From assembly GCA_004022145.1 (NCBI GenBank), contig RCNU01000015.1: a stretch of 64,000 nt of DNA, one strand, 5' to 3'. Position 1 is the stretch's first letter. Every line of letters begins with the position of its first letter. This DNA comes from Paecilomyces variotii. Taxonomy: Eukaryota. The notes beneath the pieces were generated by a model. The model was not told the origin of the DNA. It saw only the letters and a program-made list of their open reading frames with translations, and searched no databases. Shown one piece after another: positions 3,464-54,541 of this stretch. Both the position numbers and the translations under genes were made by a program.

Positions 3464-4709
3464 TCAGAGAAGACGTACTCGCTCTCTTTTCCTTATCGCT
3501 TCGCATTCATAGGGCTCTGTGCAGTGGGCCTGTACCTCTTGTCGTCTTCGGGCATATAGTGCTGCACCTCGAGAGGCTACAAATATTGGATTAATGATTC
3601 TGGGCACAATAGCAGCATCTGCATGGTCTCGAAAGTGTGTTTGAAGATTCACAGGCGACATATGAACCATTTCAGACAGAGCATCTCTCAAAGTAGCTAG
3701 AAAGCGCGGGTGAGTGGCACTCTCCCCAGCCAGAAGAATATGAGTAAGAGGATATGGGTATTCTCGAGGAAGGGCCAATAGTTGCGAACGAAGGCGGGAC
3801 CATGGTGTACCCTGGGACTCGTCTGTCTGGACAAGATTATCTAGCCCGACTTCAAAATCCAGAACTTGCGCTTCATCCGTATTAAACCGAGATAAAGCCT
3901 CGCCATTGATAGGGGCTATAATGCTAGTGTATAGAAGATGCCGACTGTAGAAGACATAGAAAACATGGGCATTGGGCGAATTATAAAACTCGTCTGTGCA
4001 TTCCCAAAGATCCTCATAGTTTGCACACAGTCCATATCCGTTTGCTGCATAAACAGCATCGGCCTCCACTAAGCGTTGCGGGTAAAAGCCGCTGTCGCCT
4101 ACCCATGTCCGTAAATCCAAGTCCTCGAGTGCAGCGTTAACTATTGAACTAATAGAGCTGATATCAGGGGTTGCAACCGCCACCCTATCAAGTGGCTGAG
4201 ATATTTCTTTTTCGGTGGAAACTTTCAGTTCTTGGAGTAATTTGCTGATGATTTCGACATCGCTGTATGCTTTGATCGGACGACCGAGCTTCTTGTTAAG
4301 CCAACGCCAGCAAGCGCCCCATGAAGTAGTGTCAGATAGAGAGAATCGGGGAAGGATAGTGTCATAGAGAAATTTCTTGGTTCTGTCTAACCGTGGCCTG
4401 GGGTCGCCTGCAAGTCGCATCATAAGCTCAAGGTACTCGGGATTTCCATGGATATAGGCTAGTTCAACGACAGTTCCGTTATAGTAGTGTACTGAGGCTG
4501 TTCTTTTTTAAATGTTAGAGAAGTCGGGATGTTAAAAGATAGACGATATTTACTCACCCGTATGAGGGAGTCAGGTCAAAACCGATCCCGGGGGCATCGT
4601 GAATCTGCGCAGGGAGGCATATCTCACACAACGGGCGGGGACAATCGTAGAAAGCATCTATAATGGAGATATATTGAAGAAATAGAAAAACTATCAACAG
4701 CCCATTCAT
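3464..4709 (-). CDS. Putative secreted protein with an Hsp70/actin-like ATPase-fold domain (2 exons)
   Basis: Signal-like MNGLLIVFLFLQYISIIDA; GIGFDLTPSYG-TASV (cf. Hsp70 IGIDLGTT), VAVATP, ILLAGESATHPRF (cf. VLVGGS-RIP), INPIFVASRGAALYA (cf. NPDEAVAxGAA); intron ~4503-4557. Confidence 0.65.
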
Positions 4710-4849: not shown

Positions 4850-7313
4850 TCGGGAATCATTGGGCATAGATATGTAAAGGGCATTCGTCACTTCAGTGCT
4901 CGATCTGGTTAATCTTGCCGTTTCTAGGTCGGCGTCCCAATACTTCTTCACATCGCCCGGACAGAAAGAGAGACTGTTCTACCTCTTTCTTCCTTCTTTC
5001 CCGTCCTTTAACTTCTCTATCTTGGACTTATGCGCCCTCTCTGCCTTCACCGACCAATATGACCAAGCGTTCAGCCCGACGCACTGCCCTTTTCTTTTCC
5101 CCGGAGATGCCTCTTGATCTGGCACCCAAATCGTTCCATCACAGAGCTGCAGAACTCAGACTGGTTCGCTAGACGCCGCATTCCAATGGGAGAAGCCTGT
5201 GCTGGAAAATCCGAGCGCTGGGACTCAATATTATTGACAGGGCAGAACGGAGAATGGTAGGTCTCAAAAGAGTTATCGAGATGCCTTTCCAAAATATCGC
5301 AACCCTAAACCGGTGCAGCGTTGTCGTGCAGGCATTTCTCACGACACTACATCGCTCTACCAGCCGGAAAGAAGACGGGTTTATTCGCATGGCTTGTGTT
5401 CTAGGGTGAGATCTCTCGTTGCCGCATAGAGTGCCGTTTTAGCATCGAATGTATGCACTCCTGGGCACAGAGACCGCCCTTCTGCAGGGTTTGCTGTCTA
5501 TGGATGGTAGTGCGGTCAACACGAGTGTACCATTGGGATCTGACTCCGGGTAGGGTCAACAAGCGTGGTTTCTCTGTGAGATATCCCGGTCTCGCTGTGT
5601 GTCCTTCTGGCGCGAAAGAGGATTTGCAGTCTCTTGTTATCTCTGCTCAGGCTAACGGTGCCCTGATATGCCGCTTCCAAATAGGAAAGAATCAATCTCC
5701 ACGAATGCCTGATGAGGTTATAGAAAATCGAACATGTCTTGGTTCCTCCTCTAGGAACGAAACCGATCTCCCAAACCGCGATCCTTATGTCGTATTCTGG
5801 GATTATACCCACAGATTGCCCCCATGGGTCTCATTTCCAGTAGCGGTAGTATCGACATCGAGTGGTCAGAATCCCACTGCACACAGAGTAGTGGAATTAC
5901 TTGGTTGGGCCGTCCGGAATATCAGCAACCGAAGAGGCCAAGCTCAGATAAGCGGACACATTGGATCGAAGCGACGTCGGTAGTTCAGTAGTTGCGACAG
6001 TAATATCATCGGCTCTCATAAGTAAATAAAAACTTGTCGAGATACATGGTATATTAAATAGGGCTTTACGTTAGCATGTAAGTTGTAGAAGGTGCAAGAA
6101 CACCAAGGGCCGCAGCTGCTTTCTGCGCCGTGACCGACCAACGTCTAGGGTCCCATCTGGATCTAACCATAATTGACCTGCGACAAGGTGACTATCGTTA
6201 TTAACGAACCAGATAATAATACTTGGACTTTGCATACGTATTATTATAGAAAGATCTACTATCCAACATGCTAAATGCCGCATAATATTCCACTGTTATG
6301 CGAGGTCCCCAGATAAGGAGGTAAAGCTGCGCCTTGTTCAGATATAAATACGATAATGAGCCTTTAAAGAGCTAGATACATCGGGCTCTCTAAAGCACTC
6401 GACCAAAAACGACACATCTCTGTTAGTCGCAGTTATAGATCCCGTGTACCGCACAAACCTTATTGACAGAAGGTAGGTAAATAGAACTTCTATCGCGTAG
6501 TGATGGAGAAGAAAAGTAGATCAGTAACGCGAGTTTACACCCGCTCAATATGCAAGAAGAGGAAAATCAACATGGAAGAATATTCTGTTCTAATTATTCC
6601 CCCAAGAACTATTAGTAACGCTGCCTTTCCCCTGATATTTCTCTGCAAGTGCACCAAGTCTTTTATATTGGCCGGCATGTTCCAATTCTTGGCATGTTCG
6701 GCCGGTTACATATAACAATCAGAAACTTTATGGCTTTTCTCAGCCAGCTAGGACAGATATTTATGTCGCGCCAAGGGGCCCATACAACGGATATTATGTT
6801 GGCCTACCTTTACGGACAAATCGTCGAAGAAAGGAATGAGTCTTTGAGCCCAGGCTAGCTCAATTGATAGCAAGCATTGCCCTGCGAAAATGACCGAGTA
6901 CATGAATTTGGGATTACTCACCTTGAGTTGGTTGCAGATATCATCCCCATTAATCCAGCGACTACCCGCATTGATGAACAAGCGAGACAGGTTGGATTGG
7001 AAAGGCATGTTAGTGACGCACTCCATGAAATTATGTGTAACCACATGCGAAGTCTCGGTAATGCGTCACGATAATCTCGAAGAAGGGTATATAGATCTCG
7101 CACAGGCGGTCGAGCTTCAGCACTTTTCCCAGTTTCTCGATGAGCAGCTTGAATTTGAATTTCAAGTAGCTTTTCCAGTGCCTTATCCCATAGTCTGTCT
7201 GTTTCATACTGCAAAGGATCCGTCTTCTCTCGTGGGAAATGATCAGTAGTCGAGACAAAGGAGTAGCCCCATTTGTTGATGTGGTCTCTAACATTCGGGT
7301 TTGGGCTCAGCAT
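4850..7313 (-). pseudogene. Degenerate gene relic(s), unknown product
   Basis: Overlapping protein-like ORF pieces in different frames (6918-7313, 6748-7044, 5516-5812) separated by frameshifts and stops; no motif recognised. Confidence 0.3.
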
Positions 7314-7891
7314 AGCGTTAAGTCACTTAAGGAAAAAAGCAACAAGAGAGGAAGAGAGGAAGAGGACGAAGGAGAATAGGGTTTCGTGACCGCGTGTGAA
7401 GACAACATTATTAGGCCGGTTTAGAGCCTTCGACCAAGACCCCAAGTCCTTTCGATATCGCTAGCTGATAAGCGCCCAGTAAATTAAATCATGGCTTCCT
7501 GATATTTTGACTAGCGCAGCACAAGACTTACTAGTTTTAGAAAATATATCTGCATTTAATTTTTACTTTCAGAGTCTGAACCAAAGCTTGCCTCGTTTGC
7601 AGAAATTTTTCTAGAGCCATTTAACACTCTTGGTTTTCATTGAAGTCAAGTTCTGGTATGCCCGGCGCAGTCAGAGGTATCATATAGTAATGATATAACG
7701 AATGTCGCTTGCTTCTTTAGCACTACCTTGTCGCTGGTATTGGGATAAAATCTTTTCCCGCAGGATCCATTCTGGGCTAAAGAGCTTGACCACTTGATCA
7801 TTGATTTTAAGTGATATATACCCTATCCGCTACAGTCATTCAGTCTCCCCGAGTCACACTACGCTTGAATACTTGCATCTTCCCTCATTAT

Positions 7892-8821
7892 CTAAACATA
7901 CTCCACCAGAATCCCAGACCCATCATACACAATGCTCGCTTTAGCCACGTATTTCTCCGTACTCAGATTCACAAGATCAACCAGCGCCACCGCCGCTTCA
8001 TCCTCCTCATCCTCCACGGCAAACGTCAAATTCCCAGCCGCAGCTCCCGCCGTCACACCCGTGAATGTGACGGACCCAAAGTTCAAAAATGACACTGTCT
8101 CCCCGCTACTCTGGTAATCCTCGACAGTCCACTCGGCCGACTGGCCAGTCAGGGTGCTGGTGGCGGCAGGTGCGGTGACCGTCGCTGTGGCCCGTTGGCC
8201 GTTGCTCTCGTTCTCAATCACAGCCACCCCAGCGGACGAGGAGGTCGCATACACGGTGGCCACGATGACATCCCCGCCCTTGATCGCCAGCACCTCCGGG
8301 GAGAAATCCACCGCGTTGGCTGGGTACCATTCATACCAAGCGGTGTAGACGTACTCGACTTCCTCTTCGGTGGAGGAGGATGCGGTAACCACGTCGATTC
8401 CCGCTTGTAAAATAGCTCCCGTGTTGACAAAGCCGTCAATCCCTACCCAGATCGAGGCGGCCTCGCCGGCCATGTTACTGGAAACAGTGGGGATGGGCGC
8501 AGTGAAGGCTGCGGCCACAGAGGTGAGGATGGGGGTGGAGGCAAGGTCGGCGCTTAAGAGGGCGGCCCCAGCCCAGTTGGTCGTGTAGTAGTAGGGGGTG
8601 TTTTGCTGGTCGGTCAAGGGAGACTCGGATGCTGATGAGTTGGTGAGAGGCCCTTGCTGCACCTCAGTGTGTGGGACCTGCTTTATCGGCTGGTGCTGGA
8701 AGCGAGGGCCGTTGCATTTTGCTAGGTTGCTGCTGCTGCTGCTGCTGCTGTAACCGCTTGGGGCGCCGTGAACAGCGGCTAGTTGGGCAAGCCACAAGGT
8801 CGTGGAAAGGAAGTTCTTCAT
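7892..8821 (-). CDS. Secreted glutamic peptidase, family G1 (eqolisin/aspergillopepsin II-like)
   Basis: Signal peptide; NWAGA, SIWVGIDG, ILQAGID (catalytic Gln), AWYEWYP, AEWTVED (catalytic Glu); single exon. Confidence 0.95.
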   Translation of the reverse strand: MKNFLSTTLWLAQLAAVHGAPSGYSSSSSSSNLAKCNGPRFQHQPIKQVPHTEVQQGPLTNSSASESPLTDQQNTPYYYTTNWAGAALLSADLASTPILTSVAAAFTAPIPTVSSNMAGEAASIWVGIDGFVNTGAILQAGIDVVTASSSTEEEVEYVYTAWYEWYPANAVDFSPEVLAIKGGDVIVATVYATSSSAGVAVIENESNGQRATATVTAPAATSTLTGQSAEWTVEDYQSSGETVSFLNFGSVTFTGVTAGAAAGNLTFAVEDEEDEAAVALVDLVNLSTEKYVAKASIVYDGSGILVEYV

Positions 8822-9436
8822 ATTGTACTATGGTTTCCGCAGCCTGTGCTCGTAGTAGATAGGTATTTCTCAAATGGCTCGTTGTACGCCGCGTTCAAAA
8901 GAAGTCTTTTAGGGCCACGAAGGTGAAAGAGATTATTAGAGGTCAACCAGGGCTAGGACGCTGCTTGTGGTACTTATAGTGCCAGGAGCCCCTTTCTGTC
9001 TGTCAATTCACAGCTCTTGTGTGGGTTCAACTTGACCTTCTTAGGGTTACCTACCATAACTTTCAGCTATCCGCAGACGTACGTATCCATAAGGTGGGTC
9101 ATACCTGAAAACTGCTGTCTCGCGTGGTTTATAGGCACCACTAGGGAACTGCGGGCGAGTATGTTTCTCGATGCACGGGCCTTGGTATATGTTATATGCC
9201 CGGAACTGGAATAATATTTTTTTGCATACTCGCTGGCGGTGGATAGTCCACTCTCTGCCCGAGTGCTCCCGTCACAATAGTAATTGAAACATGATCTCAC
9301 ACTTAATCTCGAAGCTATATTTATACGAAGAAAAGATGTTCCAGCGTCAACTGGTACAGGAACGAAAGTGGAAAGATGAGCTGCAAGACTTCCATGGAGC
9401 CCCACTCACGCTCACCCCAAGCGGACAGCCTGCAGC

Positions 9437-12400
9437 CTATACACTCATGGTTGCATTATTGTTATTGACCGAGACCCAGGGAATTGCCGAGGGGCTGCGG
9501 GTCAAGAGTGGCGAGGAAACAGTCAGAATTGCAGGGCTGGTGGACACGGCCGCCGTCGCCGAGGTTGTATCATCATCATCACTGTCGTCCGGATTGAAAG
9601 TTACAAATTGTGCTGGCCCGTTGTTGTCTTGCGTACAGCCGCTGACATAGTCCACGCGCATGTGGCAGCCGTTGGAGAAGAGAACTTGTCCGCAGATTTT
9701 GCAACCGCCGAGGTCGGCGTCCATAAGGTGGTCGAATGCACTATATCATCATTTCTGCTCGTTAGCGGGTAACTCCGGCTACCCTTTGGAAAGAGGAGAG
9801 GCGACGTACGCTTGCATTGCCGTGCCCTTCAATTGGCATCCTTCGCCCTTGACGAAGACGCCGCACCCGAAGCCCGCATTCATGTCGTCAGTATAGCAGG
9901 CACCGGAGTTGGAGTTCGCCGAGGTCGTGCTGTGTAGAAAGCTCTTGTCAGTATACATGTTTTCGTTTCACCTGTGGATGCTGAGAGGACAGATTCTGGA
10001 AGGAACACTCACCCATAGATCTCATCGCCTCGAAGGTACGATTTGGCCACCTTGCAGAAGGAGGCGAGGTTTTCGAATGTACCGCATCTCTTGGACATGC
10101 CAGAACAGCTGTAGCTGACCTCGTTTGGAGTCGTATCGGCCAAAGACGTTGCTGCAGGTCCTGTCGTCGTCGACGTGGTTGAGGTAGTGGTGGAAGTGGA
10201 AGTCGATGATGTCGTCGAGGTCGAGGTCGATGTCCAGGACGACTCAGCGGCGCGGAAGGCTGCGTCGATCTTGCTGGCGGCTGATGCCATAACAGCAGTA
10301 TCGGTTTCGGCAGCCCAGGCCATGAAGGGGGTGGCGGCACTCTCGGTGTTCGATATGGTGGTAGTTGTGGTTGTTGCCTCAGCATAGCAGGCAGTAATGG
10401 TGTTGCACGAAATACTCGTCTCCGTGGTGTAGGTCGAGACAGCGGTATCCAAGGTGCTGTATACAAATTCAGTGCACATATCCGCCTCCTCACTCTCGCA
10501 GTCGGTCTCTTCGTTCGTGCAGCCCTCGCCCGAGCACACCCCATTCTTGCAGTTGGTGCCGGAGCAGGAGACCTTATGGCAGTCGGAGCCGCTGCACGTC
10601 CCATCGCTGGTGTTGCACAGCGCGCCTAGGCAGCCGATAGAAAGACAGTCAATTCCAAAACAGGTACCACTGCCACTGCTGCAATCGCTACCGATGCAGC
10701 CCACCGTCTGGCACGATGACCCCTTACAGATGCCCTGGCCGCAATCGTCGCCCATGCAGCCCGTCTCCTCGCAGTCCGAGCCCAGACATATACCGCTATC
10801 GCTATCACAGTTGCTTCCAGAACAGCCAAACTCGGCGCACAGGGATCCTGTACATTCTCCATTCTTGCAGTCTGGGCCAGCGCACTTCTGATGGTGCGGC
10901 GGGTCTGGGTCAGACGGGTCATCGAACCCCGTGGAGTCGCCCCCGTATCCAGAGTTGCAGTTAATCATACAGGGAGCTTCACAAAAGGTAGTGCATTTAT
11001 TTCCGCAGTTAGCCGTACACGTCGGACTGGGTGGGGATCCTTCAGTAAAGTGGATGATCGGCCCTGTAGGAACAGTCGTGGGGAGGGAGGTGGTCGACCA
11101 AGGCCAAGGGGGCACGACGATAGTTCGGTTGGAGGTAACCGTGTGCGAGGCGGTGCCCATACCCAGCGGGTTAGGGTTATCTTGAATCACTATAGGGCCA
11201 ATGCCAATGCTAGGAAACAGAGTTGTTGTACCAGTGGTCTGATTCGACGCGGTAATGTTCCAGTTCCACCATTGCACGGTCCCAGTAATAATCGGATTTA
11301 GCGTAATTGTGGTAGTCTGGACCACCCGAGTGACTGTAGTAGTTATATAGACAGTATTGTTGGTCGTAATGGTGGTAGTGGTTGGCCAGGCCACTTCTAG
11401 CGGAGTGATAAAAGGTCCCGGGTAAATAGTAGTCGGCGATCCCAAGGTACTAGGAGGGAAGATCATATTGATAGGACCAATCCCTGTGACGGTACCATTA
11501 TCCGAGTTATAGATCTCTTGACCCACATAGAAGTCCCCTGTGCCATCGCTCCCACCCTCAGTGCTCGCTCCAGCCATAGATGTGTCCAGAGCATTCATTT
11601 CGTTAGGGTTCGCTAACGATCCCGGCCCTCCGAGGTCAAGTGCCCAACTGAAAAGGCCCCCAAGGCAGAGGTCATTGGCGAAATCAGCCTTTTGCTTAAA
11701 TGTCTTGGCATTGTCGAAAGAAACCCTAAACAGAGAGGAAATTAGAGCAAGCACATTATCCTTCACAGCAAAGCGACTGAAGCAATAAACATACCATTGG
11801 TTTTCGTTCCAGGTAATCCAGTTCACTGCAGCGGCTTCATTATACTGGATTATAGGGTCATACTCTTCCAAAACGCGGTTGATCTCATAATCCGATAGAA
11901 TTCCACTGGTCTGCGTGCACTGACCAGGGGAAGCTCCACCGGCAGTAAAGGCAGATGTATCAAAGGGACATCCTGGAGTGGTGCAGTTGGTCTCGAGCAA
12001 GGTGAAAGAACGGCCATAAAATCCGAGACCAAGAAGTACTTTACCGGGGTCAATGTTGTTGCGCCACAGCAGGTCTAGGCCCTCGCTTATTTCTGTTATA
12101 TTCTCAGTTTAGCTTTTTTCCTGGCGAAAGTTAGGAGAGCAGTGCATGTTTCTTACCCGTAAGATTAGTATGCGGATTGACCACCGAGGACGTATAGTTA
12201 CTCTCTCCATCCCATGTCCCGTGAATATCATACGACATGAAGTTGAAGTAGTCCACGTATTCTGCCATTGACGAGATATCGAAGCCCTTGAGGTACCCTA
12301 CAACATGGCTGAGTGATGAGCTCAAGGTAATCTGCTGTGCTTGACTTACAGTAGGAGGATGGCAAGGTGACTGTAATCCCATACGTATCACCACACTCCT

Positions 12401-13498
12401 CCCTAAGCTCCTTGAGGAAAGAAACATAATTCGCCGTGTCCGCAGTTTTGCCTCCTGGAGCAGAAAGAGATGCAACGTCAGCCCGCAAGTGCAAGAACGA
12501 AGAGAAATATAGTTATTTTACTTACCACGATCACTGGCGGCTGGATATTCCCAGTCAATGTCGATCCCGTCGAAACCGTACTTCTTCATAAAGCTACTCG
12601 CCGAAGTAATAAAGGCCGAACGTGTGCCAGGGAAGCTTACCATCGAGGAAAAGACTTCTCCTCCTAGGTCCCAGCCTCCAACCGAGATGAAAGTTTTTAA
12701 TTCCGACTTCTTCTTCTTCAGGGCCGTAAACTCGGGGATATATTCCTCGTCGTTGGCGTATAAAGTCTCAATCTCGGAAGTCTCACTGTTAATTCCAGCA
12801 AAGGCGTAGTAGAGATGCTAAGACATGCTTGTTAGCTTGAGTTATCTTCGAAAGAATTCGGTGGGTGGGGCTTGAGCATACCGTCCAAGGTGCAACATCG
12901 ATATCCGAAGGGTGAATTACATCACAGGGATGTTGATAATTCCAAGCCTCATAGTACCCTATGTAAACCGCTTCGCTGGAGGTGCCGGAGCAAGATCTAT
13001 AAGGCTGTGTCAGAGTAATCGCGAAAACATATTTCGAACGCTGGACTCACGGCTCAGTAACTGCATCACAATTGCTTTGGCAACCGGTACCACAGAAGTC
13101 TTCTGTCGTTCCACAGAACCTAATCATATGGTCAGAGGTGTTATCAGACACGGTCAGGATATCTCTCTCACCCATAAGGCGAGCAGCAGACATTCAACGG
13201 GCAAGTAGTGTTGGCGACCTCAGCATATGCTATGCGGAAATGTCAGTGTGTCAATGCGTCGAGCACCAAATGCAAGGGGGAACCGCATACGCCCACACTC
13301 CGCTAACGCGTCACAAGTCGATATACACACATCATCGCCGCAGAAGTCTGGGCCGAAGCCGCAATAGCCACTGGAGCTACAACAACCGCTGACACACTCT
13401 GATGTTGAAGAGCAGGTGCCGGATCCGCCTGTGGCTGCAGACACCAACGTCCCCAACAGTGAGCCGAGCAAGAGCCCTCTCGAGAGAGTTGCGTTCAT
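9437..13498 (-). CDS. Subgroup C GH18 chitinase: signal peptide, hevein/CBM18-like modules, GH18, Thr-rich linker, CxGxxC repeats, C-terminal KP4-like domain (multi-intron)
   Basis: ATG 13498 MNATLSRGLLLGSLL; CCSSSGYCGFGPDFCG and CPLNVCCSPYGFCG; ISVGGW; intact catalytic FDGIDIDWEYP (~12540-12580); MSYDIHGTWD; LGLGFYGRSF; CLGGLFSWALD. The junctions I checked (GH18 C-half and last exons) splice in frame to stop 9437. Confidence 0.93.
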
Positions 13499-14779
13499 CC
13501 TGAACCCGATGGAATATGGAAATGGTGAGGGAACACAAATCTCGATGGGCGTCTGAAGGGAGCTCTCGAGTTTAATATGTTCTCTATTCAACCTTTTGCA
13601 ACTCATCGGGAGACCATCAACCGCTCGCCTCTCGCCTTCGTCTATCTTACTTCAACGCAGAAGCCTTCGGATTAGTCTCCACCTGTATCTTTCTTTTTAC
13701 TCACTCACACTTCCATGCCTTCCTTTTTCCATGTTGGATCGCAATCTCCGAAGCTCGACCCAAGGACACCAGTGATGCAGACTATTAGCAAGCTAATTTA
13801 GCCCACCGGAGAAAGCGAATTGCACATTGCGAGCATTCGACCGTGTATAGCGCTCACGGAATACTGACTGCGCTTTGAGAGTAGAGTTTTCATGCCTGGT
13901 TTCTTTTTTTTTGACGCAGTTCGAGTGTCCCGTGGTGGTATGGTCTTCACCACGAGCCAACCAATTTAGCGGTAATTAATCGGTTTGTCACTTGCATCTT
14001 CGCACAGACTACCTAGGTAGTTCACACTAACAGAGGAAAGGGTCTTTACTCCTTGAACTGGTTAGTTAGTTAGTATCTAGTAGTTAGATAAGCGGCACGG
14101 AGATACCAAGAGCCCTGGGCGGGCCGTAGGCTGGCTGGCTACCCTTTGGGAACCGGGCGCTCCGGAACGCTCGGTTCGGTCCGGTGAAGGGACGGTGGGC
14201 CGAATAGACTACGTACAATAGGGAAAGGCACGTGGCGGCTAAAGGTAGGTACCTAAGATACACCCGAATCTAGCCTCCATATCCCTCTAGGGTTCCGCGC
14301 CGACTTCCTACTCGTCGCGTGGTCTACGGAGATATAGGCCGTAGTACGCTAGCGCGTGCTTTAGCTTTTATCCTCAGTCTACGGAGTATACTTTTGCAGT
14401 AGACTAGTAGTAGATACGTAGTGACTAGATCGTAGAATTCAATTCCGCATCTGTCAGCTCTGTCGGCTCAGTGGCGGCAGGTCACAATCGGGCAGCGGGC
14501 CAGTTCCGCGGGTCCATTACCCTTACCGCTTGCTTGACCGCCCGCCGCTGGCCGTTAACCTCGTTAACCTCGTCTAGCTCTAATATCATTATGTATATTT
14601 ATGTATATAAATGCGCGATTGACTGAAATTCACTCTCTTTAACCTTGGAACACTCTTTCTCCTGCCGTTCTCGGCCGAGCGTCTGCCGTTTTCGCTCCCG
14701 CGCACGGGCTCCCGCAGCCTCCCGCACCCTAGCAAGACTACTCTGTAAAGGCCTTAGCTATACAGTTGTGTGGCCAAAC

Positions 14780-15260
14780 GCCTTGTCTAGATAACCAGAC
14801 GCCCAGATACTTAACTACATATGTATTTAGAGTGGATATCAGTATTCTAGATTTAAAAAGACCCTGTCACGGGCCCCATAAGCCGGGGGAAGTATTAGTG
14901 CTTTGAGGTGAAGTGGATCAGGCCATATTTACTACCATAGGTGCGAATCTAGATCCGTGCTTTCGCTCCTAGATCTCGGCTAAATAGTTGGTGTGCTTCG
15001 GCCAGCCGGTAACAGTTCCGGACGGTGGAGTTATTCCAGACTAGCATGCAGATATCGTCAATATAGCCCGTGACCATAGTTCGTTTAATTAACGATCATA
15101 TCGGGGCGTTTAAAGGTCTCCTTCTCACTAGATACTCTCGCAGCGATTTAGGCGTTCTTTAATGGCCTGGAGCTCATGCTCTAGGGTCGTAAGGGTTAGA
15201 TCCTCCTCCTGGACGCGGTCGCCAAACGTAACTAAACTCCTAGTGGCTGGTATTAAGGGA
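14780..15260 (-). mobile_element. Non-LTR retrotransposon (LINE, Tad1-like) reverse-transcriptase relic
   Basis: Minus strand reads VTGYIDDICMLVWNNSTVRNCYRL (YIDD at 15054-15065), frameshift, AEI*ERKHGSRFAP, KYGLIHFT (~14910-14930), VKYLGVWL (14792-14812); stops, frameshifts and deletions present. Confidence 0.8.
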
Positions 15261-15677
15261 TTTTAAGCCCAATATTTCTACTAAATGTATCAAGTATTTC
15301 TGACATGGTAAATTACCGTACGTGCATTGTTTTTGCGGTATAGCACACCGAAGAATTGTAGACGCTTCGTTTTCCGAAGGAAGCTGTATGTTTAGAAGCG
15401 AGCTCTCTATATGGTTGGGAGCTTCTGTCTCGCTCTTACCGGTGATTTATTTAGATAATAGTAGTCTAGGGGCAGGTGGATCGGGGTTACCTTCTATAGT
15501 CTACTAACACAGGAACAAAAATTAGCATAATCACGATTGTCCCTTAGTCACTAAGGGAAAGGCATATATTATCCTTGGTGAAGCTAGAGCTTGAGCCTGC
15601 GTTTTAACTATTCTTTGCACCCAGGAGCGCAAACGGTATTCATTAAAGCACGAAAGAGCCAGTGAGAGAAAGGTATA

Positions 15678-17088
15678 ATGCGGTCAATCTTCAATACCAA
15701 GGGCCTTCTGGCTGCATGGATCGGGCTATCTACCACTGCCCAGCTGTGGCCCGGGGTGTCGGCTCAGTGGACAATGCGGAACATCGTGCTTGACTCAGTA
15801 TCTTGTGATACCGCCGCTACAAACTATCTCGCAAAAGCCATCTACAACATTCAGAGCATGGTGAGCATAACCCTGGGCATCGGAGCATGCATCAGTGCCT
15901 GCACTATCTCGTGGAGGCTGACAAGATACTATACAGCTTTATAGCACCATATCGGGCCTTTCGACAATTAAAGACAACCTTGGTAAGGCGCGAGAGGACT
16001 TGGAGGCGGCCGACCGAGCCAAGCTAGATCTTTTCATGGCTATGTACGGGATATTCGACCCTGTCGATACGGACGCGATTTCGACCGCGCAAACAACCGT
16101 TGACACAGTCGCCAGTAAGTCTGGAGTGCCTAATGACGCTCAACGGCAGGGTTCGAGACCTAACACAGGCAGCTTTTGCGAACCAACTTCTTGGCGGTCT
16201 GGAAAACGACGCCCTTGAGATCGGGGTCTGCTGTAATAACGATCACTTGAGAGAAATCAAGGGGGTCTGTGAGTTCGCCTTATCTAGGAGTATATTTGGT
16301 TTCGACTATGGCTAAATACTACTGCCGAACATAGATCCTGTCGTATACCGCAGTACTGTCTACCCTGACATGCTGCTTATTCCTGCCGAGGACAATTGCG
16401 ACGGTAATCTAAGAGCCATGATGCAGGAGACCACCACATTCACGAGAGATATTATGACTATCTGCCCGGACTCTTTGCCTATGACCAACCCAGACACAGA
16501 GTATGAGGAAGCCTGGATTGCTCACATTGACCAATATGACACTGGCAGTTTGACCGGAATTCAGGGTGAGTATATGGATGATATTGTGGCCACTACCGGT
16601 GAGGTGACTCTGCTCCATGAGCTGACACACACCGAGTCGTTCTTTGGCGCCAGCGGTGTTCTGGGTATGCATTCCTCTTTCTTTTTTTCCCCGTCTTTTC
16701 CGGGTCTACCTTCCAATACCATGTTAACACACCGCTAATTCTCTTCTTACTACCATATTGAAGAGGATATGTTTACCTCCGAAGAGGAGAATGCCTACCG
16801 ATGGGAGAAATGCTTCGATCTGGCGGACAACCCTGAGACCCGGGCGAATGCGGTAAAAAATGCTGGCAAGTTCTACTAAAAGGCCCTTGATGTTGTCCCT
16901 TAGTATCAAAGCTAATGCCTATACTATCCAGAGACATTCGCATACTTCAGCGCCGGTAAGTATGACTCTGTCTGTATTGGCCTCAGGAAGAAGTGAAAGT
17001 GCTAATTGGGAAAATTGGTATAGGTCTATACTTGGATCAGTGCAATTGGCGGAATGGAGAATGCGAGAACCCGGAGGATGTGGACTAA
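15678..17088 (+). CDS. Secreted zinc metalloprotease-like protein, M35/aspzincin type (multi-intron)
   Basis: Signal peptide MRSIFNTKGLLAAWIGL..VSA; MTICP; LLHELTH (HExxH); spliced continuation GVLEDMF..AYRWEKCFDLA..AVKNAETFAYF parallels the M35 D..Y...C..LA...NADSY pattern; stop TAA 17086-17088. Confidence 0.8.
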
Positions 17089-17328
17089 AAGCATAGGGAC
17101 TTTGAAGACTTGCCGCTGGATTGGACATATTCAATGCTGATACTAGTATGGCAGGGGCAGCAGTTAACTAACTAGTTAGTTAGTTAGTTGACTACAGTTG
17201 TATTAGTCAGACGGACGGAACAATATCCGACAAGATTAAATTCATCATATTTGCCCTTAATTTTCGCCCCTTAGCCATTTCTCTATTCCCATTATCCTTG
17301 TCTCCCCTTTAAGCATTACACTGCCTCT

Positions 17329-18528
17329 ATGGGCTTTAGCGGACTACCCAGCGAGCTGCACCAGCTCATCGCAGAGTCTTTGGACTCAGAGGATGCCATC
17401 AATGCGCTAGCGCGCACTAACCGTACCTTTTACACGCAGTTCAACTCCTTTCTGTATAGATACCACCTTACAAGACATGCCAAGCGACCCCCAGCACCGG
17501 CACTTATATGGGCTGCTCAGAATGGAAGGCACGATACATTAGTCAGGCTCCTCGACGCGGGCGCAAACCTATACCACCCTCGAATCTGGCAGGAGAAGCC
17601 AACTTCAACCGGGTGGACTGGGCTTTTGCCTAAACATCCAGTCCGGCTTGCTGCCGAGAAGGGTCATGTCAAATTCCTTCAGACCATCTTGGATCGGGAG
17701 CAAGAGAGTTTCGGTAGCCGACTGGGTCCACGGGGTCACGCCATCCTTTTTGCGCGGGCAGCCCTCAACAACCACCTGCCCGTGGTGCAGATGCTGCTCG
17801 CCCGCGGTGTCAACCCCTGGGGTAAACATACCTCATTTCTTTCCCAGGGGGTGCAACGGCAGAAATTCAGCCGGGAGATGCTGCAAGTACTGCTCGAGGA
17901 CGCCAGGCATCGAGAGCATCTGCAGCCCTTCACCACCTGGGAACCCATTCACATGGCACTACGGTATGCGGTAGAGCGGGCCAAGGACATCGAGGTCACT
18001 AGGATGATCCTCGCGACCGGGGTCGATGTTAACTTCCTCTATTCCGGTATGATCGTGGAACGGCGACCCTTGCATTACTGTCACCAACTGGACTTATATC
18101 AGCTCCTGCTTGAGGCGGGTGCTGATCCAAACATCGACAACAACGATAAGTGGGGGCCTCTCGCCTTTGCAGTAGGGAACTTTTACCCGCAGCACGGCCA
18201 ATATCAACTCTCGCCAAAAGCCAGGAGCCAGCGGTGGGAAAAAATTCAGCTGCTATTTCAGTACGGCGCAGACCCAGCGCGAGCCGGAGGCGGTTGGGCG
18301 CTGCATGGCGCAGTACGGGACGCGGATTTTAAATTGGCAGACTTCCTGGCCGACCACGGGGCGAGCATAAGCGTCACTGAGCTCAGCGATGCGGATCAAG
18401 CTCTCTTGGACCGTGCAGTAGAGGAGCGTGCGTGGGAGACAGTGATGAGACTTACTCCAGTCAATTGGTCCATAATAGGATCTGCTGGGTCTGCAGCTCA
18501 TCTCTACCCCCGCCGAGCTTTCGCCTAG
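17329..18528 (+). CDS. F-box-like + ankyrin-repeat protein (399 aa, single exon, no signal peptide)
   Basis: N-terminal LPSELHQLIAESL..INALARTNRTFY; repeats ALIWAAQNGRHDTLVRLLDAGAN, PVRLAAEKGH, AALNNHLPVVQMLLARG, LLLEAGADPN, ALHGAVRDADFKLADFLADHGA. Confidence 0.9.
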   Translation: MGFSGLPSELHQLIAESLDSEDAINALARTNRTFYTQFNSFLYRYHLTRHAKRPPAPALIWAAQNGRHDTLVRLLDAGANLYHPRIWQEKPTSTGWTGLLPKHPVRLAAEKGHVKFLQTILDREQESFGSRLGPRGHAILFARAALNNHLPVVQMLLARGVNPWGKHTSFLSQGVQRQKFSREMLQVLLEDARHREHLQPFTTWEPIHMALRYAVERAKDIEVTRMILATGVDVNFLYSGMIVERRPLHYCHQLDLYQLLLEAGADPNIDNNDKWGPLAFAVGNFYPQHGQYQLSPKARSQRWEKIQLLFQYGADPARAGGGWALHGAVRDADFKLADFLADHGASISVTELSDADQALLDRAVEERAWETVMRLTPVNWSIIGSAGSAAHLYPRRAFA

Positions 18529-18599
18529 GGGTAGCAGCATCGCGCACCCAGCTCGGAGAGGGGTCTGCCCGGCCTGGAGAAGGGTTTACGCCGTCGTAT

Positions 18600-19760
18600 C
18601 CTACTTGTGGAATGTCTATACGAACTAAAGTAACAGTAGGATATAGGATATATTAGAACGAATCGCTGGCTTCTAGTAAGATAGCGATCTAGGATCTATT
18701 TATATAATAATCCTCCTGTACTTTATAGCTTTAGTATTATATAATCTAGGCAAGCGAGAGACTATAGGGTTTAACTTTATATAAGCTAAGTAATATTAAG
18801 CGAATACTGTTAAAAGCTTAATAGGGGTAGAAATTTATCAACTAAAAATTTCTAACCCCTTAGAACTTTTCCCTAAAACCCTCGAGCTATAATCCGGGAT
18901 ATACTAGTCTAGGTATTAATATGGGAAAGGCACTGATAGCAGGGATAATGTAAGGCGCTACACGGGAACTCGAGCTATAAGGCGTGACTAGGCATAGAGA
19001 ATAGAAGAATTATAGAGCAATCTGATACTTATAAGTAGAGCTGTGGTATATATAATAATAAGTAGAGAAGTGTCAGACTAGGTATATGATATAGCCGGGG
19101 GAGCGGACTAAATATAACTCCGATCATATTACGGGTTCCCCGTAACAGTATAATAAAGGACATAAACAATTGGACTTGGCCGTAGATACTGTAATAGAGC
19201 GTCTCGTAGTCAAAGCTTATAAGGGGTGTCAGCCCGTAGTAGCCGTTAGGCTACTGCTATAGTATGTATAGCCTTTTAGCGCAGTGGTTTCTAGGATTTA
19301 GGCTGGCACCTAGAGATCCCTGTTATATCTCGGGCACGCGAAGCTGAATGATAAAGATGCTTAATTCTCCTAGGATCGAGCTCTGAAGCTCTGAGCTATC
19401 TAAACTACTAATCAGTGCGACTAGCTAAGCCTAAAACGGAAGGAGGCAGGCGATACCTAGGTATCCGCCTGGCCTACAGGCCCAAAATTGTACGTATATT
19501 CTACCAGCCAGTGAACAACCTTCAATAAGATACAGGGTTTTCACCAGAAGAGATTGAGTAGGATATAGCTAGTGTGACTAGTTTATACAGTATAATTAGG
19601 TACTCATACAAGCACGTATAAGCATTTACGACTATTGAGACTAGTCCGATGTTCTCCGCCCCTACGGAGGACTAGGGCATTACTACTCCACTAGCCCTAC
19701 AAACGACTATAAACGGCGTTTTATACAAAATTGCCTTATTAAAAGCTGGCATGCATGGTA
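18600..19760. other. RIP-like mutated, TpA-rich spacer (probable repeat relic)
   Basis: Visible excess of TA/CTA/TAG and scarcity of CA/TG, with CG retained; no ORF in the track. Confidence 0.6.
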
Positions 19761-19856
19761 GATAATCAATTCCTGTTTCGAAGATGATATTAATCATTCT
19801 TATATAGGCTCCTCCTACCTGCTCTCTTCTTTCCTCGTGTCAGAACCTCAAGGATT

Positions 19857-21514
19857 ATGCAGTTCTACCCTTTTGTCCTTTCTTGTCTTCTGGCGCAGGC
19901 CGCGGCATCCCCCCGGATCCAGAAACGATGGCTAAACGGGGACACTGCCACTGGCACCACCGATCCAGACGTGACCAGTGACTGTGAGTATTGGGCCAAC
20001 GACATCTCCGCGACCGATACCTGTGCGGAGCTCGAGATGTACTTTGATGCCACTGTCGCTGAGCTCCATGCCTGGAATCCCTCGCTGCTGGAAGACTACT
20101 GCGTGCTGATCGAAGGATGGAGCTACTGCGTCGAGGGTCCGGCCGTGACTGTCACCGCGGCTGCGTCCACTACGACGAATACCGCGATCCCAGTTGTCGG
20201 TTTCACCGAGGTGACGGATTTTGTGACCAGCACGACCCTCGCGGCTGCGACTGCTACCTCTGCATCGGCCACCACTGTCACCACTTACTCGGGCGGAGTG
20301 CCTTCACCAACGCAGAGTGGCCTCGTGGGGGCGTGCAATGAGTACTACTATGTTAAATCAACAGATACTTGCTATACGATCCAGGATCTGTACTTGGATT
20401 TCACACTCAATGAGTTCTACACTTGGAACCCGTTAGTCTTCCCTATATCTTGAGTCTTGGCGAGAGCAATTCACATGTAGGAATGCAAAGCTAACCAGGT
20501 CACATCCTTTCAGTTCTATCTCGACAGGCTGCGTCGGTTTGGAGCCAGGCTACTATGTCTGTGTTGGGGTAACCGGGGGTACTTCTAACATTGCCACTGC
20601 TACTGCCACTATCGCTGGAACAACAACCGCAACTGCAACCTCGTCCTTACCATACGAGCCTCAGCAGACCGGTCTTACATCGAACTGTGAGTTTCCTCAC
20701 CCCATGAATATAGCAATGTTATTGTCCTTCCGCGCAGTACCTGACAGCCAAGCTTAATGGCAGGCGATGATTATTACTATGTAAACGAGGGCGATGCCTG
20801 CACCGCTATCCTCGAGGAGTTCGATATCACCATGGCTGAATTCTACGCCTGGAATCCCGCGGTAGGGTCCGACTGTAACACTATGGAATATGGGTACTAT
20901 GTCTGCGTGGGCGTCCCTGGTTCGTCCTGTCTTTTCCCTTCACCCTTAATGAGATCAAGGAAGCGATGACATTCATTCCTAACATTAATTCTACAACCCA
21001 ACTAGGCTCTAATGCAACAACTATGACCACGCAGTCCATAACCCCCCCTACTGCCACCATCGCCTCAACTACTACCACCGCATCTACTTTAATTCTAACC
21101 ACAACAACTACAACAGCAACTATTATAGGCCCCTCCCCGACCCAAACTGGCATTACCACTAACTGTACCACCTACTACGAGGCCACCGCTAACGACAGTT
21201 GCTGGTCAATCGTGACGGAAAAATACGCCTACCTCACCGAGACTGAATTCATCGACTGGAACCCGGCCGTCGGGTCTGACTGCACCAGCCTGTGGGCAGG
21301 CTACTACTACTGCGTGGCAACTACTACCGTCGCCCCTATGCCGGACATCACCGACAGTTGCACTAGTTACTACCTTGTCGCCGAGGGGGATAGCTGCTAT
21401 TCTATTGAGCAGGCGTACGGGATCTCCGCCGCCGACTTTGTGGAGTGGAATCCTGCCGTGGGGGACAGTTGTGCGTCGCTGTGGGAGGGGTATTATGTTT
21501 GTGTGGCTGTATGA
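19857..21514 (+). CDS. Secreted LysM-domain protein with five fungal-type (Cys-containing) LysM modules
   Basis: Signal peptide, IQKR (Kex2-like), five C..Y....D.C..I.......F..WNP....C..L..GY.YCV modules separated by Thr-rich linkers; 3 introns. Confidence 0.95.
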
Positions 21515-22839: not shown

Positions 22840-24265
22840 TTACCCCTCCCATGTCGCCTCGAGGATTGAAAGTATAGAACCCGGTGGCTGCTTCGCACCT
22901 TTAAAATGGAACCTTGGATCAGCTTGTTCAAACAGGGATTGCCATTCATCAATGTCGCGTTCTTTGGCGTTTCCGATTTCTAGCATAGTGATGTCCATGG
23001 CCCTGAATGGCTTAGTACAGTACATACTTAGTGGTGCGGAAACGATAATATCGGGTTATGAAACACTTACCTCAGCTTTCGTTCAACATTATTAGGGAGC
23101 ACACCTGGAGGGGGCATCACAAAGTCCATAATAAGCACTCGCGAACCTGGCTTCAGAGCGGGGATTAACGCCTTCAGGGCCCTGATACAATACTTATCAG
23201 GCCAGTTATGTAAAGTCCAACGATAGAGATAAACGTCTGCGTCCTGCACAGGCTGCTCCTCGAAGAGATCATGCGTCATGAATTTCACGTCTAGGCCGAC
23301 TTCTTCCTTGGACTCTGCGACGACCTGAGGCAGCTCCTGGACGATTAGGTGTAGACTTGGGTATTTACGAGCCAATGCAAACGCTGCATCGCCATGGGAT
23401 CCACCCAGGTCGATAACAGTCCCGGCGCCTATCGAATCCCAGCAATATCCATCCGTGAGATGACGCAGGGAATATCCTTCGCCTGTGGTGAAAAAGCTCA
23501 TAGCGCCAGCAAACCGGCGCGCTCGATCGGGGTTTTTAGCTAGTTCGGCATAGAAAGACTGATCCGTACCGTTGGCCAGTGAGAAGCCCTACCTATCATT
23601 AGCGAGATACCACTGGGGATCTGGAAGCGTTCGCGAAGTGTACCGTTTGATTTGGCTCTGCGGCAAGTGGCCATTTTACAAGGGCATCCACAACTTTCTC
23701 GGCCGCGGGCCACATATCATCTACATTCGCCCCAACCCAGCTTGCGACACGGGCGTCTTCCGCGATCTGTCTGGAAGCTGCAGAGTGGGCAATGACTCCA
23801 GGGCGAGGCTCCTTGAATACGCGGTGTGCGATTCCGAGACGGAGAATAGAACAGAGTGCAGCACGATCAATACCAATAATAGCTGCCAAATCCGTGAATG
23901 TGATCTCTCCATCCGTAGGCACTTTGTTTGAAATATCGAAGCGCGAAATTAGTTTCAGATACACCACCGCATTGTGTTATTGTAGCGTTAGCTGCTATCT
24001 GGGCTCCATCGTTGGTAGATAAACGGACCTCGTGATTGAAAAGTAGATCCCTCGGTCCTTGAAATAAGTCATTGAGCTCTTGGCTTGCTTGGAGGGCTAC
24101 AGTGCGTGACTGTTCGATATGAGGCGGCAGACTAAGGTCAGCTGGCCCATTGGCCTCGAAAGATGGATATGGTAACCCCTTCTCAGCAAGATAAGAGTCA
24201 ATTTGTTGAGTGTGTTGCGCCACGGTGGTTGCCAGCTCGACGATCCGTCTCGGCGATAGAGACAT
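22840..24265 (-). CDS. SAM-dependent O-methyltransferase (fungal secondary-metabolite class)
   Basis: N-terminal dimerisation region (YLAEKGLPYPSF..GP), VFKEPRPGVIAHSAAS, VIDLGGSHG, HDLFEEQP, YRWTLHNWPD, GNAKERDIDEW; 3 introns. Confidence 0.93.
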
Positions 24266-25070
24266 AGTGGTTAAACGAGATCGGAGGCTGACAGCCTCAG
24301 ATTCATCTATATATGTACTGTGGGTGGTTTGAAAGAAAGGAAAGGAACCGTCAATACTTTAACTATTGTCAAATAGTGTCCTCAATTGAAAACGGGCTCG
24401 CGCCCGTAGGTACAAATTATTAGTGTATTGAAATAGTTGGCAGCCTAACTACAAACCTGTATCATTTTAGCGGATAAAACCAAGGAATCTAGGCGCAGAG
24501 ACGCCCTACGTACACGGCTCTTTTCGCCCCCATAGCAGGCAGCCAACAACAACGATACAAGTTTAGAAAGGCCATTTCATGCTGAAACTAAAGTTCGACG
24601 CTATTTGATACGGGTTCTTATCATGTCAGCACTACTGCAATTCTGCAACTGAAGGCGTGTATAATGTTACATTGTGTGGCGGGACTCTTATTCCTGATAA
24701 TGTCTCGAGCTGACTGATACTTAGGAAGCTTGAATTCGGATCCTGACGCCGTAGTCAGGATCGGCTATATCTGACTAGATGATTAGCTACTTACTGTGGT
24801 GGCCGGGTGAGCGGCGAACTGCTACTAGGAGCTTAGGAGCTTTGAAACAATGCAAGTGGTCATCTAGGCAGCCCGAAGCCGACTATTATTGAGGAGTGCT
24901 CCCCAAACGTTGAAAGTGGACCTTACTGAAACCTAATCACTTGTTCATTTGTTCACTTCAGTCTATCACGATGAATCTCTCAATTTGGTCTCAGTCTCTG
25001 GGGTTCAAGAATGTCTCTTTGACGTATTGATCTCTTGGCATAAATCATGCGCTATTCGAAGGTCGTCGCT

Positions 25071-25589: not shown

Positions 25590-26049
25590 GTTTTCTTGGA
25601 GGCTCTGGGGGAAGATTGATGGAATGCTTGATTCTCTAGGAATTGAGCTCAAGAGCTCGAAGCTACTTATCTGCCGGGTTCTCTTTTCCTCCGATCTTTC
25701 GGGGTTCAATCTGATTAGTGCTGACAGCCTCACGCACGGAAAAGTAGCGACTACCAAGCCACTTCGTCATTAGCCTATAGCCAGTGTTTCCCACCGGGAT
25801 AGCGTCGTTGGCTGTGTCTGCATAGACCGGGATTGGCTTCAGTTCCTGTTCTAGTCCTAGGGTTAGATGGATCGAGCTATTAAACCCCGGAATGGAAGGT
25901 CCCTTACATAGAGGGACTTTCCAAGGTATGCCTTTCCTCGAATATTGAGAGTATACACGATTATTTCTGGGTGAAGAAGTGACTTGGGAAGGAATTCCCA
26001 AATAATCCTATTTTGCCGAACTTTAACTAGAAGGCGTCTATCATCTAGA

Positions 26050-54510: not shown

Positions 54511-54541
<31 letters not shown>

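Follow-up and report, generated by a model that had tools for sequence, protein, structure and literature searches.

A killer-toxin-like chitinase of Paecilomyces variotii with a C-terminal MU117/KP4-family domain and its secreted-protein gene neighbourhood

The DNA considered here, a stretch of 64,000 nucleotides from the nuclear DNA of Paecilomyces variotii (Byssochlamys spectabilis; contig RCNU01000015.1 of NCBI GenBank assembly GCA_004022145.1) that we call the window, contains between positions 7892 and 21514 five adjacent genes, for a G1 glutamic peptidase, a chitinase, a protein with an HExxH motif, an ankyrin-repeat protein and a LysM protein. An earlier note on this DNA, which set these outer limits, described the genes as adjacent and apparently intact, with four secreted products and no housekeeping gene among them, and read them as one unit for antagonism with its own candidate for self-protection. 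The gene models confirm the description: all five genes are present and intact, none of the five is a housekeeping gene, and signal-peptide-like N-termini, called by eye and by a crude hydrophobicity rule rather than by SignalP, are found on all products except the ankyrin protein. The antagonism unit with an immunity gene is unsupported by any test run. The object of interest is the chitinase itself, an enzyme of the C-I type with a KP4-family tip fused in cis and with a stalk that is shared with other heads and other tips. Somewhat over half of our belief goes to the reading that this is an effector-tipped, killer-toxin-like C-I chitinase, built of head, stalk and tip, that would bring a KP4-type inhibitor to other fungi, with the peptidase and the LysM protein as associates.

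The chitinase gene (9437-13498, minus strand) consists of 11 exons (13498-13291, 13229-13172, 13119-13051, 12996-12882, 12817-12526, 12454-12350, 12297-12157, 12092-11795, 11725-10013, 9929-9810 and 9740-9437) separated by 10 GT-AG introns, and it encodes a protein of 1140 residues. Like the other gene models, this one was made by reading the splice sites from the sequence and was then checked by script; it is letter-identical to P0197, a 1140-residue P. variotii record (public proteins are referred to here by such P numbers). The large exon is 97% identical to P0001, which is annotated as 'CAZyme family GH18 [Paecilomyces variotii]', and the differences between P0001 and the raw open reading frame of the window amount to one retained in-frame intron and one mismatch. 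The order of the parts is signal peptide, two CBM18 modules, GH18 domain, stalk, Cys-rich repeat, Ser/Thr linker, the MU117/KP4-family tip, and an acidic and Ser-rich tail. The two CBM18 (chitin-binding type 1) modules occupy residues 24-106 (13068-13429, minus strand) and were detected as two stretches on the near-identical P0001 (Chitin_bind_1, 51.9 bits). The GH18 catalytic domain (residues 123-459; 11635-12965, minus strand) scores 235 bits on P0001 (PF00704, E 2.2e-69), and its catalytic motif DGIDIDWE (DxxDxDxE) is intact.

Subgroup C chitinases are termed killer-toxin-like and resemble the α subunit of zymocin (PMC2614207). C-I enzymes contain only chitin-binding type 1 domains, whereas C-II enzymes have LysM domains in addition (PMC2614207; also the cited sections of the preprint 10.1101/2024.10.25.620242). 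In the same sections of the preprint, Heneghan, Salzberg and Wolfe report that zymocin-like gamma-toxin clusters go with C-II chitinases, with LysM in all but three of these, and that C-II is the sister group of the killer-plasmid chitinases, while C-I lacks LysM (10.1101/2024.10.25.620242). In the chitinase of the window no LysM was detected at E ≤ 1 (Pfam, on P0001), and only 16 residues separate the CBM18 modules from the GH18 domain. Since the protein has CBM18 only, with neither a LysM nor room for one, its domain content is that of C-I and not that of the C-II type paired with zymocin-like gamma-toxins. A regular expression for LysM, which catches one of two control units, gave no matches among the 120 homologues listed. 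Histoplasma has a single C-clade chitinase, which is of the C-I type without LysM (PMC8042737), and the strong Histoplasma homologue of the window chitinase, P0060, fits C-I because that enzyme is the only one of its clade there. The proposal of a toxin-linked subgroup C chitinase finds support as to the subgroup and the killer-toxin likeness, but none as to the link to zymocin, as the architecture is that of C-I and not of the zymocin-sister C-II.

The tip (residues 964-1081; 9617-10122, minus strand) is encoded by the last three exons and contains ten cysteines. It matches the Pfam family MU117 (PF15474) with 45.6 bits against a cut-off of 30.4, over positions 2-105 of the 105 in the profile. 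A HMMER search of 1.84 billion representatives returned 71 relatives at E ≤ 1e-3. In an alignment of the tip with 29 short relatives, designated A1, all 30 sequences match MU117 and 11 also match Kp4 (PF09044) at E ≤ 0.1; P0138 (34.1 bits) and P0169 (30.2 bits), both free-standing proteins, even exceed the Kp4 cut-off of 27.8. Because 11 of the 30 match Kp4, the Pfam families MU117 and Kp4 overlap, and the label 'KP4-like' that the tip had been given holds as sequence homology through intermediates. The literature points in the same direction. In section 2.8 of their paper, de Guillen et al. (2025) list a PF15474 cluster (kcl38-A) among the manually curated KP4-fold proteins, the cited sections show Hce2 to have this fold as well, and section 2.3 reports that Zt-KP4-1 inhibits the growth of two fungi (PMC12382754). 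KP4 is a calcium channel blocker, as cited in the introduction of PMC9506348; part of the same paper describes basal expression of KP4-like genes, interpreted as cell-wall remodelling.

The tip is found on a variety of proteins. In a Pfam scan of 26 relatives, MU117 was recognized in 23, without exception at the C-terminus, and the median tail beyond it is 16 residues. The heads that bear it are, by Pfam, GH18 (P0123), a GH71 alpha-1,3-glucanase (P0186), Spherulin4 (P0155, P0166 and P0167), a subtilase S8 (P0156), a fungal lectin (P0148) and fn3 (P0139). The 71 relatives differ widely in length, with 17 of up to 110 residues, 28 of 111-200, 10 of 201-400 and 16 of more than 400; about half of those of 111-200 residues (~14 of the 28) have the appearance of secreted proteins that stand alone. 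On the chitinase side, a hidden Markov model made from A1 finds the tip in 39 of the 120 homologues listed, which come from Aspergillus, Penicillium, Paecilomyces and Microsporum, and about nine more end at the first intron of the tip. The GH18-MU117 architecture is visible in the precomputed Pfam annotations of 27 of these 120 homologues; a description of a GH18-PF15474 fusion was not found in the literature searched, which did not cover the supplements of the Heneghan preprint and of PMC12382754. In a midpoint-rooted FastTree tree of 67 non-identical tips, read without regard to branch supports, all tips on GH18-stalk proteins form one clade, and the other fusions are interleaved with free-standing proteins. 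This topology suggests one old fusion of the tip to GH18 and several other fusions elsewhere.

Between the catalytic domain and the tip lies the stalk (residues 493-886; 10354-11535, minus strand), a Thr-rich region with PPWPW followed by a cysteine repeat of the type 'GxDC...GC' (residues 701-845). This segment of about 400 residues matches no Pfam family at E ≤ 1. It is, however, 55% identical over 398 residues to residues 639-1027 of a Penicillium GH71 protein (P0061), of which the tip is unrelated, and 92 of the 120 homologues listed carry it. When the 65 stalk homologues with at least 150 residues beyond the stalk were sorted by their C-terminal ends, 40 had MU117, eight a 'YYSYRQ' tip, eight a class found in Onygenales, four a 'GDPWCWL' tip, and five were singletons, one of them a chitinase model merged with a peptidase. 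A further class with 'GGDCGSS' on GH71 proteins, with six members recognized by eye, falls just below the filter of 150 residues. Thus, at least five unrelated Cys-rich tip classes occur on the stalk, four of which have no Pfam match at all; in the nine proteins scanned, the alternative tips gave no match at E ≤ 0.1. Examples of proteins with this stalk or tip are P0061, P0186, P0023, P0060 and P0040. Taken together, these protein comparisons show that heads and tips are modular and have been swapped around the stalk and the tip. The variability that had been expected of the chitinase C-termini is seen between paralogues and between genera, on the stalk, but not within A. fumigatus or between two P. 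variotii strains, where the tips are nearly invariant.

Some further features of the chitinase and its relatives may be mentioned here. The public P. variotii models differ at the 3' end of the gene (9437-9470 and 8977-9195, minus strand) and predict proteins of 1140, 1146, 1180 or 1189 residues; the form of 1140 residues, with its end at 9437, is similar at its C-terminus to the homologue P0002 of A. thermomutatus. The closest full-length relatives are P0002 and the proteins P0003 and P0004 (Penicillium malachiteum and A. ellipticus), with identities of 76-83% in GH18 and 77-87% in the tip. A P. variotii paralogue, P0010, is 79% identical to the window chitinase in GH18 and 70% in the tip, so that the three foreign proteins are closer than the paralogue for the tip and, in two of the three cases, for GH18. 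Old duplication or horizontal transfer could account for this. Models of P0010-like paralogues in P. variotii No. 5 (P0092) and P. lecythidis (P0046 and P0082) are fragmentary or merged with a P450, and have the Cys-repeat out of frame, which suggests mis-annotation or decay in some strains. There is no indication of a duplicated P450-chitinase block, as the P450 of the merged P0092 is only 37% identical to that of the window.

The gene that directly follows the tip codes for a secreted G1 peptidase (eqolisin, Pfam A4) and not for an immunity protein. It is a single-exon gene (7892-8821, minus strand) that starts 616 bp downstream of the chitinase stop codon, on the same strand, and encodes a protein of 309 residues with a signal-peptide-like N-terminus. 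The assignment to this class, already made in the earlier note, is firmly borne out: the protein matches Peptidase_A4 (PF01828) with 159.2 bits against a cut-off of 22.3 (E 1.2e-46), and searches of the PDB returned 1y43_B (9.5e-25) and 1s2b_A (8.3e-16), the alignments being with aspergillopepsin II and scytalidopepsin B. The catalytic dyad, which we take to correspond to Q53 and E136 of the family, is kept as the Gln in ILQAG and the Glu in TVEDY in the alignment to 1s2b_A (scytalidopepsin B). In two merged public gene models from other genomes, P0048 of A. crustosus and P0125, a chitinase is followed by an A4 peptidase on the same strand, collinear with the window. The order of the two genes is recurrent. 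In a third model, P0083 of A. pseudotamarii, an A4 fragment is joined to GH18. A search for fused A4 forms among proteins of the 'longer' length class yielded two proteins, among which the known merged model P0048 was absent, and its result is accordingly of little weight.

The LysM gene (19857-21514, plus strand; exons 19857-20431, 20514-20686, 20764-20919 and 20964-21514) encodes a secreted protein of 484 residues. Direct reading reveals five fungal-type LysM units at residues 43-91, 160-209, 250-298, 369-419 and 434-482, with Thr-rich linkers between them, as the note had it, whereas Pfam detects only the last one (36.4 bits). The 'F..WNP' cores of the units are marked in the DNA by a three-copy repeat family. 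No catalytic or other domain was found with Pfam at E ≤ 10, and with its predicted signal peptide, several LysM units and no catalytic domain the protein has the attributes of a LysM effector. In Trichoderma, LysM genes adjoin subgroup-C chitinase genes and are co-regulated with them (PMC4392113); LysM genes beside subgroup-C chitinases have also been described in PMC2614207, and LysM-only genes belong to some of the zymocin-like clusters in the cited sections of the preprint 10.1101/2024.10.25.620242. These sources bear out the earlier statements that subgroup C chitinases are like zymocin α and have LysM genes as neighbours.

The two remaining genes are of a different nature. The HExxH gene (15678-17088, plus strand) has seven exons and one GC-donor intron, at 16866, and its model is identical to P0200. 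The product is a secreted protein of 325 residues that is aspzincin-like below the threshold: Aspzincin_M35 (PF14521) reaches 22.4 bits against a cut-off of 30 (E 1.8e-4, residues 242-303). A HELTH motif is present and is followed downstream by EEENAYR, at the place where aspzincins, as we presume, have their Asp-ligand motif GTxDxxYG. One member of its UniRef cluster is named 'Lysine-specific metallo-endopeptidase domain-containing protein'. The label 'metalloprotease' is accordingly plausible but not established. In a single search, in which one of the 397 candidates of the 'longer' class (where 325 residues fall) was retrieved, its relatives formed one cluster from P. variotii only. Since the gene matched relatives in P. 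variotii only, the full set of five genes is unlikely to exist outside the species. Two details of this gene deserve mention. Five of the eight differences from the allele of strain DTO063F5 fall within 12 residues (156-167; 16335-16400, plus strand), and a GT donor 13 bases upstream of the GC-AG intron at 16866 would give an in-frame form without five residues.

The ankyrin gene (17329-18528, plus strand) encodes a protein of 399 residues without a signal peptide, presumably cytoplasmic. The ankyrin families score well above their cut-offs (Ank_2 59.9 bits, Ank 56.2 bits), but the F-box of the original label 'F-box/ankyrin' remains below threshold, with F-box-like at the N-terminus reaching 13.9 bits against 24.3 (E 0.046) and F-box 12.0 against 20.5. 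When the window strain was compared with DTO063F5, a single pair of strains, the ankyrin protein was the most divergent of the four compared, with 27 differences in 399 residues (6.8%), against 2/308 (0.6%) in the A4 peptidase, 8/325 (2.5%) in the HExxH protein and 39/1111 (3.5%) in the chitinase, none of the latter in CBM18 or GH18. The tip differs between the same strains at only 2 of 117 positions, and the divergence of the ankyrin protein therefore does not track the supposed toxin.

The five genes lie on two strands with spacers of 1.3-2.2 kb. Those for the A4 peptidase and the ankyrin protein have a single exon, and the exact window proteins of both are present in public P. variotii records. 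In DTO063F5, the ankyrin gene is DTO063F5_7075, the HExxH gene _7076 and the A4 gene _7078, and the protein accession of the chitinase falls between those of _7076 and _7078; thus, these four genes stay together across P. variotii strains. A Pfam survey of the window, covering 68 of the 115 open reading frames of at least 110 residues, found a P450 gene and several open reading frames without a match to the left of the locus, and to the right, all on the minus strand, genes for an O-methyltransferase (23070-24358), a DUF1993 protein (25074-25766), a cutinase (26717-27551) and a fungal-specific transcription factor (29559-30881). From about 32 kb on, housekeeping genes follow, for a NOP2-like methyltransferase, Get5, striatin, PIG-P, an RSN1-type channel and deoxyhypusine synthase. 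Because the gene content flips to housekeeping at this point, the locus is taken to lie in a variable stretch that borders on a conserved block. Repeats of at least 40 nucleotides were not found on its flanks, the sole repeat family being that of the LysM cores within the LysM gene, and the locus contains no tRNA, Rfam family or tandem repeat. A YIDD stretch at 14949-15095 (minus strand), which by eye resembled a reverse transcriptase, was dropped as it has no Pfam support at E ≤ 1.

Elsewhere in the window, a segment just beyond the A4 gene (6890-7322) has a low GC content (0.43) and contains two overlapping open reading frames, one of 119 residues with a hydrophobic start (plus strand) and one of 134 residues (minus strand), neither of which matches Pfam. 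Between the P450 gene and the A4 gene, an open frame of 347 residues (3464-4507, minus strand) is without a Pfam match at E ≤ 1. GC content within the window is highest at 53641-59940 (minus strand; 0.59-0.63), where very long open frames of 742 and 1346 residues, the latter with a Myb domain, occur together with many long overlapping antisense open reading frames.

How might the chitinase work? The two CBM18 modules would dock it on chitin and the GH18 domain would cut the wall, while the stalk of about 400 residues with its disulfide-rich repeat would hold out the ten-cysteine tip of the MU117/KP4 family. In this manner, the enzyme could open the wall of another fungus and bring a KP4-type growth inhibitor near the plasma membrane. 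This combination of wall opening and delivery appears most likely because KP4 and its relatives act on fungi from the outside to inhibit their growth. The payload would be fused in cis, whereas the zymocin-like C-II chitinases carry theirs in trans. The G1 peptidase, as a recurrent neighbour, may trim the tip or set it free, or the peptidase and the chitinase may just be secreted together. The protein with five LysM units fits the known pairing of LysM genes with subgroup-C chitinases and may bind chitin, shield it or have a modulating role. For the HExxH and ankyrin proteins, the likeliest status is that of lineage-specific passengers, carried in a variable region with many genes for secreted proteins, rather than that of parts of a toxin-immunity system. 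We infer, in short, an antifungal action for the tip, a logic of delivery, a release of the tip by the peptidase and a supporting role for the LysM protein.

A number of observations weigh against this reading. The tip of the window itself does not match Pfam Kp4 even at E ≤ 10, and sequence searches of the PDB returned no match at E ≤ 10 with the tip alone and one noise match, to terpredoxin (E 0.48), with the A1 profile; with P0121 as the query they returned hemocyanin noise only (E 1). The identity of the tip across orthologues, 51-87%, tracks that of the stalk, as in the evolution of an ordinary domain; the tip is near-identical in 12 A. fumigatus clusters, and the 2 differences in 117 positions between the window strain and DTO063F5 belong here as well. 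A tested function for MU117 was not found in the literature searched, and binding or anchoring would be an equally possible task for a Cys-rich module at the C-terminus of wall enzymes. As for the associated genes, a distance of 6.4 kb and two intervening genes separate the LysM gene from that of the chitinase. With the A4 peptidase of the window, the A4 portions of the merged models share 38-47% identity and are no closer to it than an A. flavus A4 peptidase unlinked to a chitinase (45%). Orthology is therefore unproven, and the order of chitinase and A4 could equally stem from synteny inherited among related genera. Finally, no word of 7 or 8 nucleotides is common to four or more of the five upstream regions, in a weak test in which shuffled sequences gave a mean of 1.34 7-mers.

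Unlikely on balance, yet the most probable of the alternatives, is a role in the remodelling of the producer's own wall, in which chitinase, tip, LysM protein and proteases would act during hyphal networking, autolysis or spore formation and the tip would be a targeting or regulatory module. The GH18, GH71 and Spherulin4 heads all act on polymers found in the producer's own wall, if, as we assume, Spherulin4 is linked to wall polysaccharide. The tip is conserved rather than diversifying, the family MU117 owes its name to a meiotically up-regulated gene of S. pombe, and the basal expression of KP4-like genes was read as wall remodelling in the cited part of PMC9506348. This role is harder to reconcile with family members that reach into the Kp4 toxin family, with the growth inhibition of fungi by the KP4-fold proteins tested so far, according to the cited sections of PMC12382754, and with the induction of group C chitinases of both subgroups by other fungi, reported in those of 10.1101/2024.10.25.620242. 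The five genes might also be unrelated, secreted or fast-evolving genes that are neighbours by chance in a variable region, with nothing but inherited synteny joining chitinase and A4, which we hold to be rather improbable. Clusters of secreted-protein genes are a known feature of variable regions, and adjacency alone is for that reason weak evidence. The P450, O-methyltransferase, cutinase and transcription factor genes that give way to housekeeping genes at about 32 kb, the HExxH gene with relatives in P. variotii only, the arrangement on two strands with spacers of 1.3-2.2 kb and no shared promoter motif, and the relatedness, within the Eurotiales, of the species that have merged chitinase-A4 models would all suit chance. 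They have to be set against three independent merged models that join A4 to this type of chitinase, and against the pairing of LysM genes with subgroup-C chitinase genes in distant genera (PMC4392113; cited sections of 10.1101/2024.10.25.620242). Moreover, the same functional classes (GH18, CBM18, LysM, Ank, protease and Kp4) are induced together in the non-self response of Podospora, and the induced genes there are chromosomally clustered and poorly conserved (PMC3689799).

The integrated unit of the earlier note, in which the five genes would work like a polymorphic toxin-immunity locus with the ankyrin protein as cytoplasmic self-protection, is very improbable. It could call upon stalk tips that are polymorphic between paralogues and genera, upon the ankyrin protein being the most divergent between strains (27/399, in one pair), and upon the four genes looked up, those for A4, chitinase, HExxH and ankyrin, being kept together in P. 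variotii strains. Nothing found links the F-box/ankyrin gene to self-protection, however, and the F-box match is sub-threshold. A cytoplasmic antidote would not be expected where KP4-type proteins act on the membrane from outside. The polymorphic toxin-immunity logic also finds no support at the tip, which is followed by a secreted peptidase rather than an immunity-type gene and is near-invariant within species, with a divergence that the ankyrin protein does not follow; and the restriction of the HExxH gene to P. variotii, in a single search, and the upstream regions with no motif in common speak against the unit as a whole. Least credible of all is a zymocin-like cluster in the sense of Heneghan et al., in which a chitinase serves as α/β precursor beside an immunity gene and a further gene for a small secreted gamma-toxin ribonuclease with Glu-8 and a C-terminal Cys. 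The resemblance of subgroup C chitinases to zymocin α (PMC2614207) would agree with it, as would the LysM-only genes in some such clusters and an A. flavus toxin gene that lies beside a GH71 gene, GH71 proteins being sharers of the stalk (for both genes, cited sections of 10.1101/2024.10.25.620242). But in those sections all chitinases of such clusters are C-II and all but three have LysM, whereas the window chitinase has none. The spacers at 13.5-15.7 kb and 18.5-19.9 kb contain no ATG-initiated open reading frame of at least 40 residues with a signal-like start, a search that an intron-split gene would escape, and the flanking open reading frames have no Pfam match. With no LysM in the chitinase and no small signal-bearing open reading frame in the spacers, the locus is therefore not a zymocin-like cluster.

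Chitinases fused to effector domains form an accepted class, exemplified by the Hce2 fusions (PMC13556262), and among described systems these come closest to the window protein. The Hce2 chitinases (class III, e.g., ChiC2-2 of A. nidulans) are likewise large secreted GH18 enzymes with N-terminal chitin-binding modules and a small Cys-rich effector domain, Hce2 and PF15474 both fall within the KP4 structural superfamily in the cited sections of PMC12382754, and a LysM-only gene is found near both. The window protein differs from them in that its domain is MU117, placed at the extreme C-terminus after a stalk of 400 residues, in a C-I enzyme that lacks LysM; the Hce2 chitinases, by contrast, belong to C-II and lie beside Tox-P3 genes (cited sections of 10.1101/2024.10.25.620242). 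With the zymocin-like clusters, the window would share a chitinase that carries a toxic moiety to chitin-walled competitors, as we propose here, and it shares LysM-only genes nearby and a location in variable regions. Those clusters, in the same sections, combine a C-II chitinase with a gamma-toxin ribonuclease that is encoded separately and joined by a disulfide, and often with an Imm gene; in the window, no gamma-toxin candidate was found, and the candidate payload is in cis, belongs to another family and would act outside the cell.

The KP4 toxin and KP4-like proteins (PF09044; UmV-KP4, Fg-KP4L and Zt-KP4-1) likewise have a domain of about 105 residues with ten cysteines, and free-standing members of the tip family match Kp4, two of them above the cut-off. 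In contrast to these, the tip of the window, compared by sequence, misses Pfam Kp4 and is part of an enzyme of 1140 residues rather than a free small protein. The tac6-tal6 pairs of Trichoderma resemble the locus in having a secreted multi-LysM gene near, and divergent from, a subgroup C chitinase gene, but in the window the pair is separated by two genes and the chitinase is of the C-I type. The bacterial polymorphic toxins (Rhs, CDI) offer a likeness of architecture only, in that a conserved N-terminal part or stalk is followed by unrelated alternative C-terminal tips; no cognate immunity gene follows the tip here, and the tips vary between paralogues and genera and not within species.

A bolder and doubtful extension is that the C-I chitinases are the cis-fused counterpart of zymocin, with swappable hydrolase heads (GH18 and GH71) on a common stalk, swappable Cys-rich killing tips, and the G1 peptidase to release the tip at the breached wall, which together would make up a family of modular weapons secreted by fungi. 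Spherulin4, S8 and lectin heads would go with the tip alone, and the killing tips would comprise MU117 and at least four undescribed classes. If true, this would be a eukaryotic analogue of the polymorphic toxins without a dedicated immunity gene.

The question of what subgroup C chitinases do has stood open since 2005. The C-II enzymes have been tied to separate zymocin-like ribonuclease toxins, while the C-I enzymes are left without a payload in the cited sections of the preprint (10.1101/2024.10.25.620242). The locus described here also carries a warning, i.e., that a run of secreted-protein genes is not to be read as an operon-like unit. If the MU117/KP4-family tip is antifungal, the C-I enzymes carry their payload in the same polypeptide, and the several undescribed tip classes on the shared stalk would then be candidate antifungal proteins.

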